DNA of 43,594 bases from Kagunavirus PDP21P8: the sequence record OZ035783.1; one strand, written 5' to 3'. The translations under genes and the position numbers were made by a program. Within the stretch, counting starts at the first letter, position 1. Every line of letters begins with the position of its first letter. The notes below the pieces were generated by a model. That model saw only the letters and a list, made by a program, of their open reading frames with translations, did not search any database and was not told the origin of the DNA. Below are positions 33,091-43,016 of the stretch, piece after piece.

Positions 33091-35349
33091 CTATTCCAAA
33101 TCCTCCTCTGTCACCACCAGCATCTCATTCGGTTCGTATATCGTCTTCGGTCTTAATCTGTCCCCCATCTTTTCAGGTATCCGGTATGTGCCTGGTATAA
33201 CTTCACCGTTAACATCGCACCCGAGCATCAACTCACCGTCTTTCAGCATCTTCTCAAGATGGTGGTTGGTGATGGCGTGGTCCCCCGAGTTCGCCACTAT
33301 CTGCCGTTGGGTAAAACCTCGTCCGGTGTCGTCGGACTGTTGCAGGTCTTCCAGCGCGGCGAGTATTGATTCCTTACGCCCTTCATCCTTCCCGCGTTTT
33401 ACAGCATTCTTTACGTTTTCTTTACCTTCTTTAGTTAACCCTTCTTCCCGCTCCTTCTCCTCGTCAGTTTTGAACGGCTCGAAGCCCCACGGCATCAGCA
33501 CAAGCGCCTTGTGCGGCTCAGGCAGATCGAGGTTTACGATTGTGCCGTATTCCTCTGTGCTACCGAGGAACTCAACCGCACGGTATTCTTTCGGAGGCGG
33601 GGCTTCACGGAACTGTACCGACTCCAGAACCATGCCAACCGTTTTCTGTTGAGGCCCATGCTTAAATTTCGAGTGGTATACGTTTATCTGGCGGTCGGTA
33701 GCGCGCTCAATTGTCAGCTCCACATCAACACCGGCATACAGCGCCCCGCTACCACGGGCTTTCTTTCCACCCTTAGGCGTATGGTGGACGACACCCACAG
33801 CGGCTTTAGTTGCGTCGCGTACTTTTTTAAGGATGGCGATAACTTTACCCATGCCAATTGCAGTTGATGAACTGTTCTCGTCGAACTTGTCAATTGTCAG
33901 GGCCAGCGTCTGGTTGAGGGTATCGAACGCGACCATACCAATAGGCTCGTCCCCTGCAGCTTCACGCATCCTGCGGATTAGCGCGGGGATTTTTTTATCA
34001 CCATGCGCGGCTAGCACCTCACCCATATCAATGACATGTACGTAATCTTTACCTTCCTCGCCGTATTTAGCCGCGAGCGCGTCAATACGTGTGCGTGTAG
34101 CTGCGCCTCCCTCACCGTCGATATAGAAATGGTGGCAACGCTGGGTATCCGCCCCGGCAAACCGGTATCCGGCGGCGCTCAGGTACATCATCCCCAGCGT
34201 ATAGAACGATTTGTACGTGCCGGATTCCCCAACAATATCCCAGATACAATCTGACGGCATGTACCCCTCAACGACGAAATCAGCCTTTACCGGTTCAGGT
34301 AGCTCGTCCTCTTCTGAGTCATCATCGTCTTCCAGGTCGTCGAGGCTGCATGAAACAGATTCACGCACACCCCATCCGATAGCCTCGGCGACTTCACTGA
34401 ACGGCAGCCCGGTCGCATCACACGCGTATTTCCACACTTCTTTCGGGGGCATTCCTTCGGTCGCGGCAATGTCGGTGTCGTGAATCATGGTTACGTTCGG
34501 CGCTTCGTATCCCTCGCGCGGGAAACATAACAGGAAGTCGTCCGGGCGTGGTGTCGGGTCGCTGTAGTTTTCTGCGTGTTCTGGCGTAGCTGGCATCTTA
34601 AGGCCACGCGGCGTCATGATGCCGCCGTACTCGAAGGCCAGTGCTTCAAACGCATCTGTAAACGCGGTGCGCAGTTCTTCCGGTATCTGGTAATCAGATG
34701 CGCTGCTGATGTCAACGGCTGGGACGCCTTCCAGTAACTCATCAGGGTCAATCAGGTCGTTGCGGCGCGACCAGATAACGGTAGCGCCGACAGGAGGCAA
34801 GTACATCGGCTGCGAAAGAGTGAACCCGCTGCGGTCGGCGCCCATGCCTTTGAAGAAGTGCTCCAGCAATCCATGACGAACACGAATGATGTCACCGCCC
34901 TCAACCGTTCGGGCCAGCGGCATGACGACGCGAAAGCGCGGGGCTTCATCTGTGTGTGATGCCGTGGTATAGAGGCACATCGCCCGCCGGCTGCGCTTAA
35001 CCAGGCGCACAGCTTCCTGATACTCTTCCATGGTTGCACTGTCAAAGTCCAGGTACGCCAGCGACGATTTGCTTACAGACGCGTCACAGCGGTAGAAGAA
35101 GCCTTTACGCGCTTGCTTAAAGTCGCCAGTTTCAGGGTCTTTTACGGTGCTGTGCGTAGAGTCGCACGCGGCTGTGATATAGCCGGGGGCGGTCTTCGGG
35201 TTAATCCCGTCGCGAACGGCATCGAGCGGCTGAATTAACTCTTTCAGGTCGTCCAGTGTTGCCGTGTGTGTGGTTCTGACGTTTATATCCTTTTTCTCTG
35301 CCCGCGCGTTGCGACGGGACCACGAGTAGGATAAAATTACATCGGACAT
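33091..35349 (-). CDS. DNA primase-helicase
   Basis: 752 aa; C-terminal NTPase with Walker A GESGTYKS and Walker B-like AFDTLNQ; N-terminal primase-like region. Confidence 0.7.
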   Translation of the reverse strand: MSDVILSYSWSRRNARAEKKDINVRTTHTATLDDLKELIQPLDAVRDGINPKTAPGYITAACDSTHSTVKDPETGDFKQARKGFFYRCDASVSKSSLAYLDFDSATMEEYQEAVRLVKRSRRAMCLYTTASHTDEAPRFRVVMPLARTVEGGDIIRVRHGLLEHFFKGMGADRSGFTLSQPMYLPPVGATVIWSRRNDLIDPDELLEGVPAVDISSASDYQIPEELRTAFTDAFEALAFEYGGIMTPRGLKMPATPEHAENYSDPTPRPDDFLLCFPREGYEAPNVTMIHDTDIAATEGMPPKEVWKYACDATGLPFSEVAEAIGWGVRESVSCSLDDLEDDDDSEEDELPEPVKADFVVEGYMPSDCIWDIVGESGTYKSFYTLGMMYLSAAGYRFAGADTQRCHHFYIDGEGGAATRTRIDALAAKYGEEGKDYVHVIDMGEVLAAHGDKKIPALIRRMREAAGDEPIGMVAFDTLNQTLALTIDKFDENSSSTAIGMGKVIAILKKVRDATKAAVGVVHHTPKGGKKARGSGALYAGVDVELTIERATDRQINVYHSKFKHGPQQKTVGMVLESVQFREAPPPKEYRAVEFLGSTEEYGTIVNLDLPEPHKALVLMPWGFEPFKTDEEKEREEGLTKEGKENVKNAVKRGKDEGRKESILAALEDLQQSDDTGRGFTQRQIVANSGDHAITNHHLEKMLKDGELMLGCDVNGEVIPGTYRIPEKMGDRLRPKTIYEPNEMLVVTEEDLE
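33093..33111. repeat. 19-bp exact repeat ATTCCAAATCCTCCTCTGT (copy 2, orphan)
   Basis: same 19-mer as 30502-30520 but followed by TAG and no coupled start codon. Confidence 0.8.
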
Positions 35350-35407
35350 GTTGTATTTCCTTCAGCAAGTAATTTGGCCTCGGCGTTCACCGCGTCGGGG
35401 CTTTCTT

Positions 35408-35913: not shown

Positions 35914-36149
35914 GCTTCTGTATCTTAGTTACTTTGATTCTTGTTCACCTTGTAAAACCCGCCGAAAACGAGCGCCCAACGCGAAGTGTTAGGCGGCAGT
36001 TTACTGAACATTCGAATTATCGTAACTTTCCTTCCTAAGTATCTCCGGTTGCCCTGGGCAAGCTCTATTCCAATCGGCGGAATATATCTTAAGTATCTGA
36101 TTTTCTTAAAGTGCCGTAGATTCGCAACCGTAAAAATGTAACGATTATT

Positions 36150-36173
36150 GGGCAGGCTTAAGGCCTGCCCTTT
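36150..36173 (+). terminator. stem-loop, weak intrinsic terminator
   Basis: GGGCAGGC-ttaag-GCCTGCCC followed by TTT. Confidence 0.35.
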
Positions 36174-36242
36174 AGTTACCAAGTAATAAGAATAAAGGCA
36201 CAGCCATACCTGAAGAATCACAACGGCAACGTAACTTTTCTC

Positions 36243-40255: not shown

Positions 40256-40718
40256 TGGATTGCATTTTACCGCTGCGTTTGAGGGATTCCGTGGAACCGC
40301 GTATCGTGCTACACCAAACGAGAAGTACTTAACCACAGGCTACGGGCACTACGGGCCAGACGTGACCCCCGGTAAAACCATCACCCCGGGCCAAGGCCTC
40401 CTGTTACTGAATCGCGATATGGCTAAAGCCGTAGCTGCGGTTGATGCAGCAGCACACCATTCATTGACACAGGCACAGTTCGATGCAGTGTGCGACCTGG
40501 TGTATAACGCTGGTGCTGGTGCCATTGCGGCTACTACAGGCACGGGTAAGGCCCTGCGTTCCGGTGATATTTCGACGCTGCGGGCTAAGCTGACGCTGTT
40601 CATCAACCAGAACGGCAAACCGTTACTCGGCCTGCGTCGCCGTACCGCAGGCCGCCTGGCGCTGTTCGATGGTAAGCCGTGGCAAGAGGCTGAGGCTATC
40701 GGGAGGGCTGTTAAATGA
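40233..40718 (+). CDS. endolysin, GH24 lysozyme-like
   Basis: GTG 40233 with SD GGAGGA; AAFEGFRGTAY...TTGYGH matches phage lysozyme signature. Confidence 0.75.
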   Translation: MSRNISDNGLHFTAAFEGFRGTAYRATPNEKYLTTGYGHYGPDVTPGKTITPGQGLLLLNRDMAKAVAAVDAAAHHSLTQAQFDAVCDLVYNAGAGAIAATTGTGKALRSGDISTLRAKLTLFINQNGKPLLGLRRRTAGRLALFDGKPWQEAEAIGRAVK

Positions 40719-40846
40719 TGGACGAATATGAAGGCGTTTAGTAAACTTATCCCTACGCTGTTTGTGCTTGCATACTAAGCCCCGGTAAACCCGAAGCAGC
40801 AGCCCAAGCGGTGGAGACTGCGTAGGGTTCAGGGGCTTATGACCGA

Positions 40847-40876
40847 AACCCGGACCGCGAATCCGGGTTTTATTTT
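40847..40876 (+). terminator. rho-independent terminator
   Basis: AACCCGGA-loop-TCCGGGTT followed by TTTTATTTT. Confidence 0.65.
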
Positions 40877-40881
40877 ACCAA

Positions 40882-40910
40882 TTGACACCTAAGACTAATC
40901 CGACGATACT
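40882..40910 (+). promoter_or_regulatory. putative sigma70-like promoter
   Basis: TTGACA-17 nt-GATACT. Confidence 0.3.
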
Positions 40911-40916
40911 TAAATC

Positions 40917-40981
40917 ACCTCCTGTTCCATCCCTCTGCTCTCCAGTTTTATCCCGGCCCTGACCCAGCCGGGATTTTTTTT
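40917..40981 (+). ncRNA. candidate ~65-nt small RNA
   Basis: no ORF; pyrimidine-rich CACCUCCUGUUCCAUCCCUCUGCUCUCC then strong terminator hairpin. Confidence 0.2.
40950..40981 (+). terminator. rho-independent terminator
   Basis: ATCCCGGC-9 nt loop-GCCGGGAT followed by eight T. Confidence 0.7.
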
Positions 40982-41003: not shown

Positions 41004-41032
41004 TTGACTATTATCTACGACCCTATTATATC
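41004..41032 (+). promoter_or_regulatory. putative sigma70-like promoter
   Basis: TTGACT-17 nt-TATATC with two CTATTAT elements; upstream of small-gene block. Confidence 0.4.
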
Positions 41033-41065: not shown

Positions 41066-41143
41066 ATGAGTAACTTCCATAATGAACGTGTGATGCAGTT
41101 CTATCGCAATAATCTGAAAACTAAAGGGGTTTTTGGGAAATGA
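41066..41143 (+). CDS. very small ORF (25 aa)
   Basis: SD GGAGTAGAGAAG; overlaps next ORF start. Confidence 0.25.
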
Positions 41144-42963: not shown

Positions 42964-42986
42964 AAGCCCTCTACGGAGGGCTTTTC
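42964..42986 (+). terminator. rho-independent terminator
   Basis: AGCCCTC-tacg-GAGGGCT followed by TTTT. Confidence 0.6.
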
Positions 42987-43016
42987 TGTACATCTCGCCT
43001 AATCCCCTTATATAAT
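42987..43016 (+). promoter_or_regulatory. putative promoter upstream of terS
   Basis: TGTACA-18 nt-TATAAT; followed by nested inverted repeats. Confidence 0.4.

Follow-up and report, generated by a model that had tools for sequence, protein, structure and literature searches.

A conserved promoter-to-terminator unit behind the lysis genes of Kagunavirus PDP21P8 as a candidate small RNA gene of the Guernseyvirinae

Does the short stretch of DNA between the lysis genes and the next operon of phage PDP21P8 encode a small RNA, or does it only mark the boundary between two transcription units? The window analysed here (the whole stretch of 43,594 nucleotides, record OZ035783.1) is from an E. coli phage, a Kagunavirus of the K1G/K1ind type, subfamily Guernseyvirinae. 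On the + strand, holins and endolysin are followed by a terminator-like hairpin (T0), a promoter (P1), a short segment ending in a second terminator (T1), the promoter of the next operon (P2), small genes, a terminator, a promoter-like site and the terminase and structural genes. A sequence-only reading of this DNA had placed a promoter-to-terminator unit after the lysis genes, and this placement is correct: the endolysin ends at 40718, T0 comes next and P1-T1 follows. The features of the locus are listed below.

End at 40718, + strand: holins and endolysin, first in the local layout, upstream of T0.
40845-40880, + strand: T0, an intrinsic-terminator-like hairpin (stem 40845-40854 / 40862-40871) with a UAUUUU tail.
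40882-40887, + strand: -35 hexamer of P1, TTGACA (direct reading; promoter scan).
40905-40910, + strand: -10 hexamer of P1, GATACT, 17 nt from the -35 hexamer (direct reading; promoter scan).
41004-41032, + strand: P2, promoter of the next operon, TTGACT-17-TATATC (TATATT in relatives), outside the RNA.
41066-41143, + strand: first gene after P2, 25 aa, a full-length match to the T4 Stp family.
42965-42982, + strand: terminator between the P2 operon and the terminase and structural genes (own terminator scan).
42987-43016, + strand: promoter-like site before the terminase genes (promoter scans).

The P1 motif, TTGACA-17-GATACT at 40882-40910, was read directly from the sequence, and the coordinates given for it in the sequence-only reading are accurate. 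With a score of 10/12 in the promoter scan, P1 was the best + strand site within 38.5-43.6 kb. The match by itself is at chance level, the window containing 8 promoter-like sites with scores of at least 10/12 versus 5.75 +/- 2.3 in shuffled sequences. P1 was the only credible site of this class with a same-strand intrinsic terminator at most 250 nt downstream; the only other one followed by a terminator was a weak minus-strand site (4750-4721, TTTACA-18-AATAAT) with a 6-bp hairpin and a broken T-run. P1 stands out from chance through the way in which it is conserved in relatives. In 47 distinct Kagunavirus and Jerseyvirus sequences, which were gathered by an anchor in the RNA core alone, without reference to the promoter, the -35 hexamer was TTGAC[A/G] in 47/47, and [G/C]ATACT occurred as the -10 hexamer at a spacing of exactly 17 nt in every one of the 47. 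Nucleotide diversity was 0.016 in the -35 hexamer and 0.008 in the -10 hexamer, whereas it was 0.28 in the spacer and 0.33 in the start-site region, compared with 0.43 at the 4-fold degenerate sites of the endolysin gene. One contig (L032) contained an unrelated spacer, yet its hexamers and their spacing were identical. P1 is conserved to the same degree as P2, whose hexamers had diversities of 0.0 and 0.016 versus 0.26 for its spacer. The constancy of the hexamers and their spacing around a freely varying spacer strongly favours the interpretation of P1 as a working promoter.

The operon behind P2 consists of small early-type genes, including Stp-like, DUF2737 and NinH-like genes. Its first gene, of 25 aa, belongs to the T4 Stp 'anticodon nuclease activator' family (PF08133, E = 2e-18; PHROG 6763), and Stp is an anti-restriction peptide. 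Because a Stp-like gene heads this operon and both promoters are of the host type, the arrangement suggests that P1 and P2 fire early rather than late; with P1 of the host sigma-70 type and the adjoining operon opening with an anti-restriction peptide, expression of the unit late in infection, as assumed previously, is unlikely. The first ORF after P2 is hypervariable among relatives, and P1-T1 may stand at the head of a variable anti-defence gene slot, which holds the T4 Stp-like peptide in PDP21P8.

Transcription from P1 would yield an RNA whose sequence, counted from A40917, is ACCUCCUGUUCCAUCCCUCUGCUCUCCAGUUUUAUCCCGGCCCUGACCCAGCCGGGAUUUUUUUU. Its segments are the following.

40914-40923, + strand: ATCACCTCCT, an anti-Shine-Dalgarno-like motif conserved in most Kagunaviruses.
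40917-40981, + strand: predicted ncRNA of ~60-65 nt, from the inferred start at A40917, 7 nt after the -10 hexamer, to a 3' end within the U-run.
40917-40944, + strand: G-poor, pyrimidine-rich stretch CACCTCCTGTTCCATCCCTCTGCTCTCC (direct reading).
40928-40943, + strand: candidate seed, CATCCCTCT (40928-40936) plus GCTCTCC (40937-40943), the most conserved single-stranded part.
40946-40949, + strand: U-run directly 5' of the T1 hairpin, UUUU(A)U (diversity 0.016).
40950-40981, + strand: T1, an 8-bp GC-rich stem (40950-40957 / 40967-40974) and U8, encoded by T8 at 40974-40981.

When the 65-nt RNA (40917-40981) was folded with RNAfold, the first 33 nt were unpaired and a single terminal hairpin was formed, at -13.8 kcal/mol. 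The stem arms of this hairpin are ATCCCGGC / GCCGGGAT and its loop is CCUGACCCA. Across 25 distinct sequences from three genera, the T1 helix was paired in 99% of cells, and four of its eight pairs were altered on both sides, whereas slid controls all gave 0. The T-run was invariant except in length, which ranged from 7 to 14, the loop CU(G/A)ACCC was largely kept across genera, and the UUU before the hairpin was invariant or nearly so (25/25 distinct sequences, three genera). These compensatory changes strongly favour structural conservation of the T1 terminator, part of which has a simpler explanation because T1 is also the terminator of the lysis operon in most relatives.

The 5' half of the predicted RNA is conserved to a moderate extent, below both the promoter hexamers and the 3' module. 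Diversity in the C/U-rich 5' region was 0.21, which is about half of the value at the endolysin 4-fold sites. The candidate seed is common to Kagunavirus and Jerseyvirus and can be aligned to UUCCAYSCAGCCAGC of Cornellvirus; the seeds differ between genera, and several single-base variants occur within the candidate seed among relatives, the RNA variants including CUCUGCUC and CUCUACUC. In one contig (L017), an insertion of at least 100 nt separates the -10 hexamer from the conserved RNA core. Tolerance of such insertions would be expected if the unit is transcribed into an RNA whose 3' part is functional. A covariance model built from the three genera gave 78.4 bits for 40917-40981 and detected one copy per genome, at 72-78 bits. 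A weak match at 35344-35406 (19.9 bits) was considered as a second copy and is probably due to chance.

The unit does not appear to encode a protein. The statement in the sequence-only reading that it contains no ORF holds in the sense that no ORF of at least 30 aa overlaps it; two mechanical ORFs, of 26 aa on the + strand and 28 aa on the minus strand, do overlap it, and their frames are not kept in Jerseyvirus. The 26-aa ORF begins at the TTG of the -35 hexamer, and indels place it in different frames relative to CATCCCTCT in Kagunavirus and Jerseyvirus. In Jerseyvirus, the 28-aa ORF is interrupted, and a conserved reading frame was found on neither strand among the relatives compared. Since the overlapping frames are not conserved, the gene calls AG11_59A, Bas76_0074 and Bas76_0075 are probably spurious. 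In the records examined, the unit is labelled as a promoter, a terminator or a spurious 'hypothetical protein' and never as an RNA gene, and neither RNA-seq work nor an sRNA for Kagunavirus, Jerseyvirus or Guernseyvirinae turned up in a literature search.

Searches for known RNAs were likewise negative. Rfam, applied to the window at E <=10 and to 11 related loci at E <=1, returned only sub-threshold matches, attributable to composition and the terminator. The best of these was to RF02278 (25.0 bits, E = 0.041 in a 3-kb search), and membership in this family was rejected because the gathering threshold is 50 bits. No tRNA or tmRNA was found, and neither a homologue nor a complement of at least about 20 nt was detected in 5,426 complete E. 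coli genomes at E <=10.

By blastn, the block was found in 444 phage records (325 Salmonella, 102 Escherichia and a few others), in a match that begins exactly at the -35 hexamer of P1 and extends into the P2 leader. Identity of the block was 93-98% within Kagunavirus and about 75% to Jerseyvirus. This level alone is unremarkable because whole genomes of Kagunavirus and Jerseyvirus are about 68-90% identical per segment; it is the pattern of conservation that matters. Cornellvirus (FSL SP-031 and relatives) and Enterobacter phage phiEap-2 contain a homologous unit at the same place, with a different promoter, TTGGAC-17-(TG)TATAGT, that overlaps the endolysin stop codon. Their RNA, which ends AAAUUCCAYSCAGCCAGC(C)UUUGCCCCGR-loop-YCGGGGC-U8-10, aligns with that of Kagunavirus and Jerseyvirus, and the 3' module has the same arrangement of UUU, hairpin and U-run. 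Klebsiella phage vB_kpnM_D1, in which the unit alone matched at 99% identity, was considered as evidence of a mobile cassette and set aside, the record being flagged as unverified and appearing rearranged. A scan of IMG/VR with a degenerate pattern returned mostly chance matches.

The 5' boundary of the unit is sharp. The two flanking terminators proposed in the sequence-only reading, the T0 hairpin (40845-40871) and T1 (40950-40981), were both confirmed by RNAfold and by our own terminator scan. A standard terminator scan listed neither on the + strand; T1 was missed because its 9-nt loop exceeds the 3-8 limit of that scan. T0 folds at -14.4 kcal/mol (z -2.9, RNAfold) and is predicted to close the lysis operon in PDP21P8 and to insulate the 5' flank of the unit. 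Only some Kagunaviruses have T0, and most relatives lack it. In most Kagunaviruses, the -35 hexamer of P1 is overlapped by the stop codon of the endolysin gene; in Jerseyvirus, the two are directly adjacent. Upstream of P1, the DNA is a mosaic of at least six different contexts, including none, a T0-type insert, two different small ORFs and a structured-looking insert, and every one of them joins exactly at the -35 hexamer. Three Jerseyvirus genomes that appeared to lack P1 by BLAST match (S102, LPSE1 and GE_vB_HIL) all contain the whole unit. P1 and T1 were never found apart among relatives, and they are also kept where T0 already terminates the lysis operon, which argues against the possibility, raised with the original proposal, that the region is simply a tandem terminator. 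Such a terminator also does not fit the near-invariant hexamers around a varying spacer between T0 and T1, or the distribution of T0, which is often absent, whereas P1-T1 never is.

Taken as a whole, the sequence and its comparison with relatives agree with the proposed ~65-nt pyrimidine-rich sRNA candidate as far as a discrete, non-coding promoter-to-terminator unit of ~60-65 nt is concerned. We consider it likely that a discrete RNA is made from P1-T1. Because the promoter, the non-coding transcribed segment and the terminator structure are all conserved, a small RNA gene is the simplest account of the unit. The fuller interpretation, that P1-T1 is a self-contained gene for a ~60-65-nt ncRNA found throughout the Guernseyvirinae and acting as an early, Hfq-type, trans-acting sRNA, has in our estimation an even chance of being correct.

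Which RNA would such a regulator pair with? The sequence-only reading had proposed that the CCUCC-rich segment pairs with GGAGG-type ribosome-binding sites. In PDP21P8, ATCACCTCCT at 40914-40923 is identical to the 3' tail of E. coli 16S rRNA, the anti-Shine-Dalgarno sequence; only ACCUCCU (40917-40923) is probably inside the RNA, with the first three nucleotides preceding the start site. CCUCC is found in Kagunavirus only, with CUCCU alone retained in Jerseyvirus and CCACCCAGCCAGCC in its place in Cornellvirus. The duplex with a consensus Shine-Dalgarno sequence was correspondingly -17.7 kcal/mol for Kagunavirus (computed with the three nucleotides upstream of the inferred start included), -7.9 kcal/mol for Jerseyvirus and -7.5 kcal/mol for Cornellvirus. 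Against annotated phage translation-initiation regions, the Kagunavirus seed performed no better than shuffled seeds (z about -0.6), and the Jerseyvirus seed performed modestly better than its shuffles (z about -3.5, 40 shuffles). With the motif restricted to Kagunavirus and phage pairing at the level of shuffled seeds, the proposed mechanism gained little from these comparisons.

The target prediction on phage ribosome-binding regions suggested along with that mechanism was also unsuccessful, in that every phage-internal target tried failed. The best phage site was an 11-nt perfect match, GGAGAGCAGAG, across the Shine-Dalgarno sequence of the Bas76 exonuclease gene. It was rejected as a target because the site is missing from PDP21P8 and lies in a mosaic region that showed no co-variation with the sRNA variants across 49 contigs. 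The P2 leader and Stp translation-initiation region was rejected as well, since its -19.5 kcal/mol was matched by 20% of shuffles, and the same applied in Jerseyvirus. Runs of complementarity of at least 9 nt were sought in four complete genomes, and none was conserved between genera. The moderate conservation of the 5' region and the substantial differences among the three genera argue against one target common to them all. Any target that does exist is probably a host RNA or a protein, and we put the chance that the predicted RNA is a base-pairing regulator at slightly under one half to one half.

The likenesses to known systems are mostly of arrangement. Like Hfq-dependent enterobacterial sRNAs, the unit is intergenic and non-coding, with a sigma-70 promoter, a length of ~60-65 nt and an unstructured, seed-like 5' region, behind which a U-rich stretch leads into a GC-rich terminator hairpin tailed by at least 7 U; unlike them, it has no sequence similarity to known RNAs (Rfam, E. 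coli genomes) and its seed is only moderately conserved. A trans-acting sRNA is reportedly encoded by lambda, and DicF and the EHEC prophage sRNAs are prophage-encoded, Hfq-dependent examples. These phage and prophage sRNAs are known from temperate phages, whereas the PDP21P8-type unit occurs in strictly virulent siphophages. The Betaproteobacteria toxic small RNA (RF02278) is a C/U-rich sRNA with anti-Shine-Dalgarno-like motifs. The PDP21P8 RNA resembles it in being short, with CCUCC-type pyrimidine motifs before a terminator, which would fit the anti-ribosome-binding-site mechanism proposed earlier; however, the likeness is one of composition and terminator, and the CCUCC is not kept outside Kagunavirus. 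Lambda oop (77 nt) and the 6S RNA of pR'-tR' also combine a constitutive host-type promoter with a strong terminator at most 100-200 nt further on to give a discrete short RNA. Oop is antisense to cII, whereas the PDP21P8 RNA is antisense to nothing, and 6S arises by default from a late promoter under Q antitermination, whereas the PDP21P8 unit has no pause element or known Q and has an independent promoter, P2, directly downstream. MicL and DapZ are Type I 3'UTR-derived sRNAs, which start from a promoter of their own at the end of the upstream gene and share the terminator of the mRNA. The same layout is seen in Jerseyvirus, Cornellvirus and most Kagunaviruses, with the promoter at the endolysin stop codon and T1 shared with the lysis mRNA. 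In PDP21P8, the unit is instead a free-standing gene because T0 separates it from the lysis mRNA.

Other explanations do not require a regulatory RNA. The unit could be punctuation only, with T1 ending the lysis operon, P1 serving as an auxiliary early promoter and the short RNA being a functionless by-product; P1 transcripts might then partly read through T1 into the P2 operon, in an arrangement of tandem promoters with an attenuator. This would accord with the lack, in Jerseyvirus and most Kagunaviruses, of any terminator other than T1 behind the lysis genes, with the negative outcome of the target tests, and with the position of the T-run of T1, at about -66 to -59 of P2, where a UP element would be placed and where the T-run may double as a UP-like element. 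However, P2 is itself near-consensus and invariant and lies 23 nt past T1, so that the downstream genes do not require P1 for their transcription. With its 8-bp GC-rich stem and U8 to U14, T1 has the look of an efficient terminator, and there is no sign of a regulated alternative fold of T1 because the 5' 33 nt are unpaired. Moreover, punctuation leaves unexplained why P1 is as conserved as P2, why the C/U-rich part of the transcript is constrained to about half the neutral rate of evolution, and why P1 and T1 are kept where T0 makes T1 redundant. We regard this explanation as unlikely. A cis-acting antitermination leader, of the lambda pR'-tR'/Q or nut/boxA kind, is very unlikely. In that case, polymerase modified by a phage factor or by the RNA itself would read past T1 and later terminators to downstream (late) genes, and the short RNA would be the unmodified default product, like 6S. 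The succession of promoter, short RNA and strong terminator is the hallmark of lambda pR'-tR', the terminator at 42965-42982 divides the P2 operon from the terminase and structural genes, and, by eye, UGCUCU in Kagunavirus and GCUCCUUUA in Jerseyvirus, directly ahead of the hairpin, look similar to boxA UGCUCUUUA. Compared with boxA UGCUCUUUA / CGCUCUUA, however, the resemblance of UGCUCUCCA in Kagunavirus, AGCUCCUUUA in Jerseyvirus and CAGCCUUUG in Cornellvirus is partial and not conserved, and the boxA-like string is absent in Cornellvirus. The initially transcribed sequences ACCUCCUG, (A)AACCUGCUCC and GGUGUCGCUCC are not conserved and contain no TANNNT pause motif, the terminase genes have a separate promoter-like site (42987-43016) with P2 intervening, and no antiterminator is annotated in K1G, Bas76 or PVP-SE2.

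The conservation might also be sought in the DNA itself, as a transcription-activated or transcription-primed origin (as in the T7 primary origin), a packaging site or a protein-binding site. The replication genes of the phage are T7-like (family A polymerase, primase-helicase, gp2.5-like SSB and exonuclease), the primary origin of T7 consists of a promoter with AT-rich DNA behind it, and the conserved hairpin loop described above could be taken in the same sense. What is conserved, however, follows the logic of a promoter and an RNA helix, namely hexamers at fixed spacing and compensatory stem changes; neither iterons nor repeats occur at the locus, a C-rich RNA disfavours stable R-loops, and the many contig ends nearby are more readily attributed to broken assemblies at the first ORF after P2, which is hypervariable. 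A DNA-level role accordingly appears highly improbable. On the minus strand, CATCCCTCT..GCTCC reads as GGAG-N8/9-ATG with a mini-ORF of 6-7 codons, and, by eye, a Shine-Dalgarno-like GGAG at the proper spacing, ATG and a stop are present in both Kagunavirus (MEQEVI) and Jerseyvirus (MNKQEQV). No promoter was found nearby on that strand, the hairpin is not a terminator in the minus direction, the peptide varies non-conservatively (MKQGVI in contig L027) and in length, and the longer 28-aa ORF is the one broken in Jerseyvirus, so a minus-strand element is scarcely credible.

Returning to the small RNA gene, the scheme that we propose is that the sigma-70 RNA polymerase of the host would initiate near 40917, probably early, as at the P2 operon, and that transcription would end at the T1 hairpin and U8. 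The product would have a G-poor, C/U-rich, unstructured 5' half and a 3' half made up of UUUU, a GC hairpin and U8. The described Hfq-binding module of enterobacterial sRNAs combines a U-run, a GC hairpin and at least 7 terminal U, and the corresponding features are present here: an 8-bp hairpin, U8 (U7-U14 in relatives) and UUUU(A)U just upstream. We infer that the RNA may act in trans with Hfq. The pyrimidine-rich segments CUCCU, CAUCCCUCU and GCUCUCC would pair with purine-rich sites in host mRNAs, typically Shine-Dalgarno regions, and such pairing would alter the translation or stability of those mRNAs.

A more far-reaching idea, which we put forward as speculative and rather improbable, is that all Guernseyvirinae carry this early pyrimidine-rich sRNA as a host-takeover or counter-defence RNA. 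In this role, the RNA might rival the anti-Shine-Dalgarno tail of 16S rRNA in pairing with ribosome-binding sites on host mRNAs, with ACCUCCU present in the Kagunavirus form, or AUCACCUCCU if the three nucleotides that precede the inferred start are counted; occupation of Hfq would be an alternative. To our knowledge, the regulatory RNAs of strictly virulent phages are poorly charted, and most characterised phage sRNAs come from temperate phages or prophages.

Even if the RNA were a by-product, the analysis corrects the calls AG11_59A and Bas76_0074/0075 and defines the operon boundaries of the group. Hundreds of Kagunavirus and Jerseyvirus genomes carry this sharply bounded unit, with a homologue in Cornellvirus. 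If the host-takeover interpretation were true, the unit would represent a conserved family of trans-acting regulatory RNAs in strictly virulent enterobacterial siphophages. Kagunavirus, Jerseyvirus and Cornellvirus are widely used in therapy and biocontrol, and because many carriers are candidates for therapy or food biocontrol, a host-directed RNA would matter both for understanding how these phages take over the cell and for their safety annotation.

The stretch separating the endolysin stop codon from P1, the promoter of the predicted small RNA (sRNA), was an indel, present in only some Kagunaviruses:

40719–40881, plus strand: 160-nt segment from the endolysin stop codon to P1, containing a long hairpin and T0, the terminator-like hairpin upstream of P1

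The long hairpin, at 40779–40842, had a consensus fold with one compensatory change and several wobble changes across a set of seven seq­uences. A weak promoter-like site (TGGACG-17-TAAACT; 40719–40747, plus strand) was located at the start of the segment, from which the segment could produce a second small RNA; otherwise, it would represent a structured 3' untranslated region of the endolysin gene. In two related loci (L025 and L031), the segment was shorter and contained TATAGT followed by about 60 nt and then T0.

The gap between the endolysin gene and P2, the promoter of the next operon, seems to be a hotspot where non-coding inserts accumulate. In an IMG/VR Kagunavirus contig (L017, 2180–2283), a 100-nt insertion with a 12-bp closing stem (−42.9 kcal/mol, z −4.7) occurred exactly between the P1 −10 element and the conserved RNA core, and would give the predicted sRNA an added structured 5' domain. 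An element some 100 nt long (…CGCGGACCTGTAACAAGGTCGGGCCAAAGTGCGGTAACGCGTGCCGGAG…) was conserved between Kagunavirus and more distant contigs in this same gap (upstream of P1 in L011, L019, L043 and L032; also in the Cornellvirus-like L051), and its consensus fold was weak, with one compensatory pair among five sequences. Neither insert had a match in Rfam. In the Cornellvirus-type phages (L038–L055 and L098–L106; phage records FSL SP-031, VSiA, St162, and phiEap-2), the promoter −35 element TTGGAC was located within the last endolysin codons and the −10 element (TG)TATAGT directly after the stop codon. The predicted RNA body ranged from about 50 to 300 nt, with an unchanged 3' core. Three of these loci (L047, L051, and L053) had a different terminator at the RNA end and possibly encode an RNA of a third type. 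The record of Klebsiella phage vB_kpnM_D1 (PP107912.1), which is flagged UNVERIFIED_ORG, contained helicase fragments, duplicated and inverted, immediately downstream of T1, the sRNA terminator; it looks misassembled and was therefore dropped as evidence of module transfer.

The covariance model of the sRNA also gave two weak matches, at equal relative positions in two Kagunaviruses:

window 35344–35406, plus strand: weak match, 19.9 bits
L113 (related locus) 36113–36175: weak match, 21.9 bits

Both were antisense to the start of the primase–helicase region, and they probably represent a chance terminator-like hairpin.

Promoters and a terminator were also found elsewhere in the window:

32793–32765, 30255–30227, and 26603–26575, minus strand: three promoters with 11/12 consensus matches, TTGACA-17-TATAGT or TATATT
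42965–42982, plus strand: terminator directly before the next feature
42987–43016, plus strand: promoter-like TGTACA-18-TATAAT just upstream of the small terminase gene

The three minus-strand candidates preceded blocks of replication genes; they are of the same class as P1 and are probably host-polymerase early or middle promoters of the phage. The plus-strand pair (42965–43016) marks the border that separates the small-gene operon from the structural operon.

The −10 element of P2 (41027–41032) was TATATC in the window versus TATATT in almost all relatives, a difference that may amount to a down-mutation in the operon promoter. The leading ORF downstream of P2 was as follows:

41066–41143, plus strand: Stp-like ORF of 25 amino acids with a full-length PF08133 match

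This match, to the T4 Stp/anticodon-nuclease-activator family, scored 65.8 bits (E = 2e-18), and the ORF also corresponded to PHROG 6763; this Kagunavirus encodes a predicted anti-restriction peptide of the T4 Stp family. Because a different ORF follows the conserved P2 leader in the relatives, this position looks like a variable anti-defence slot.
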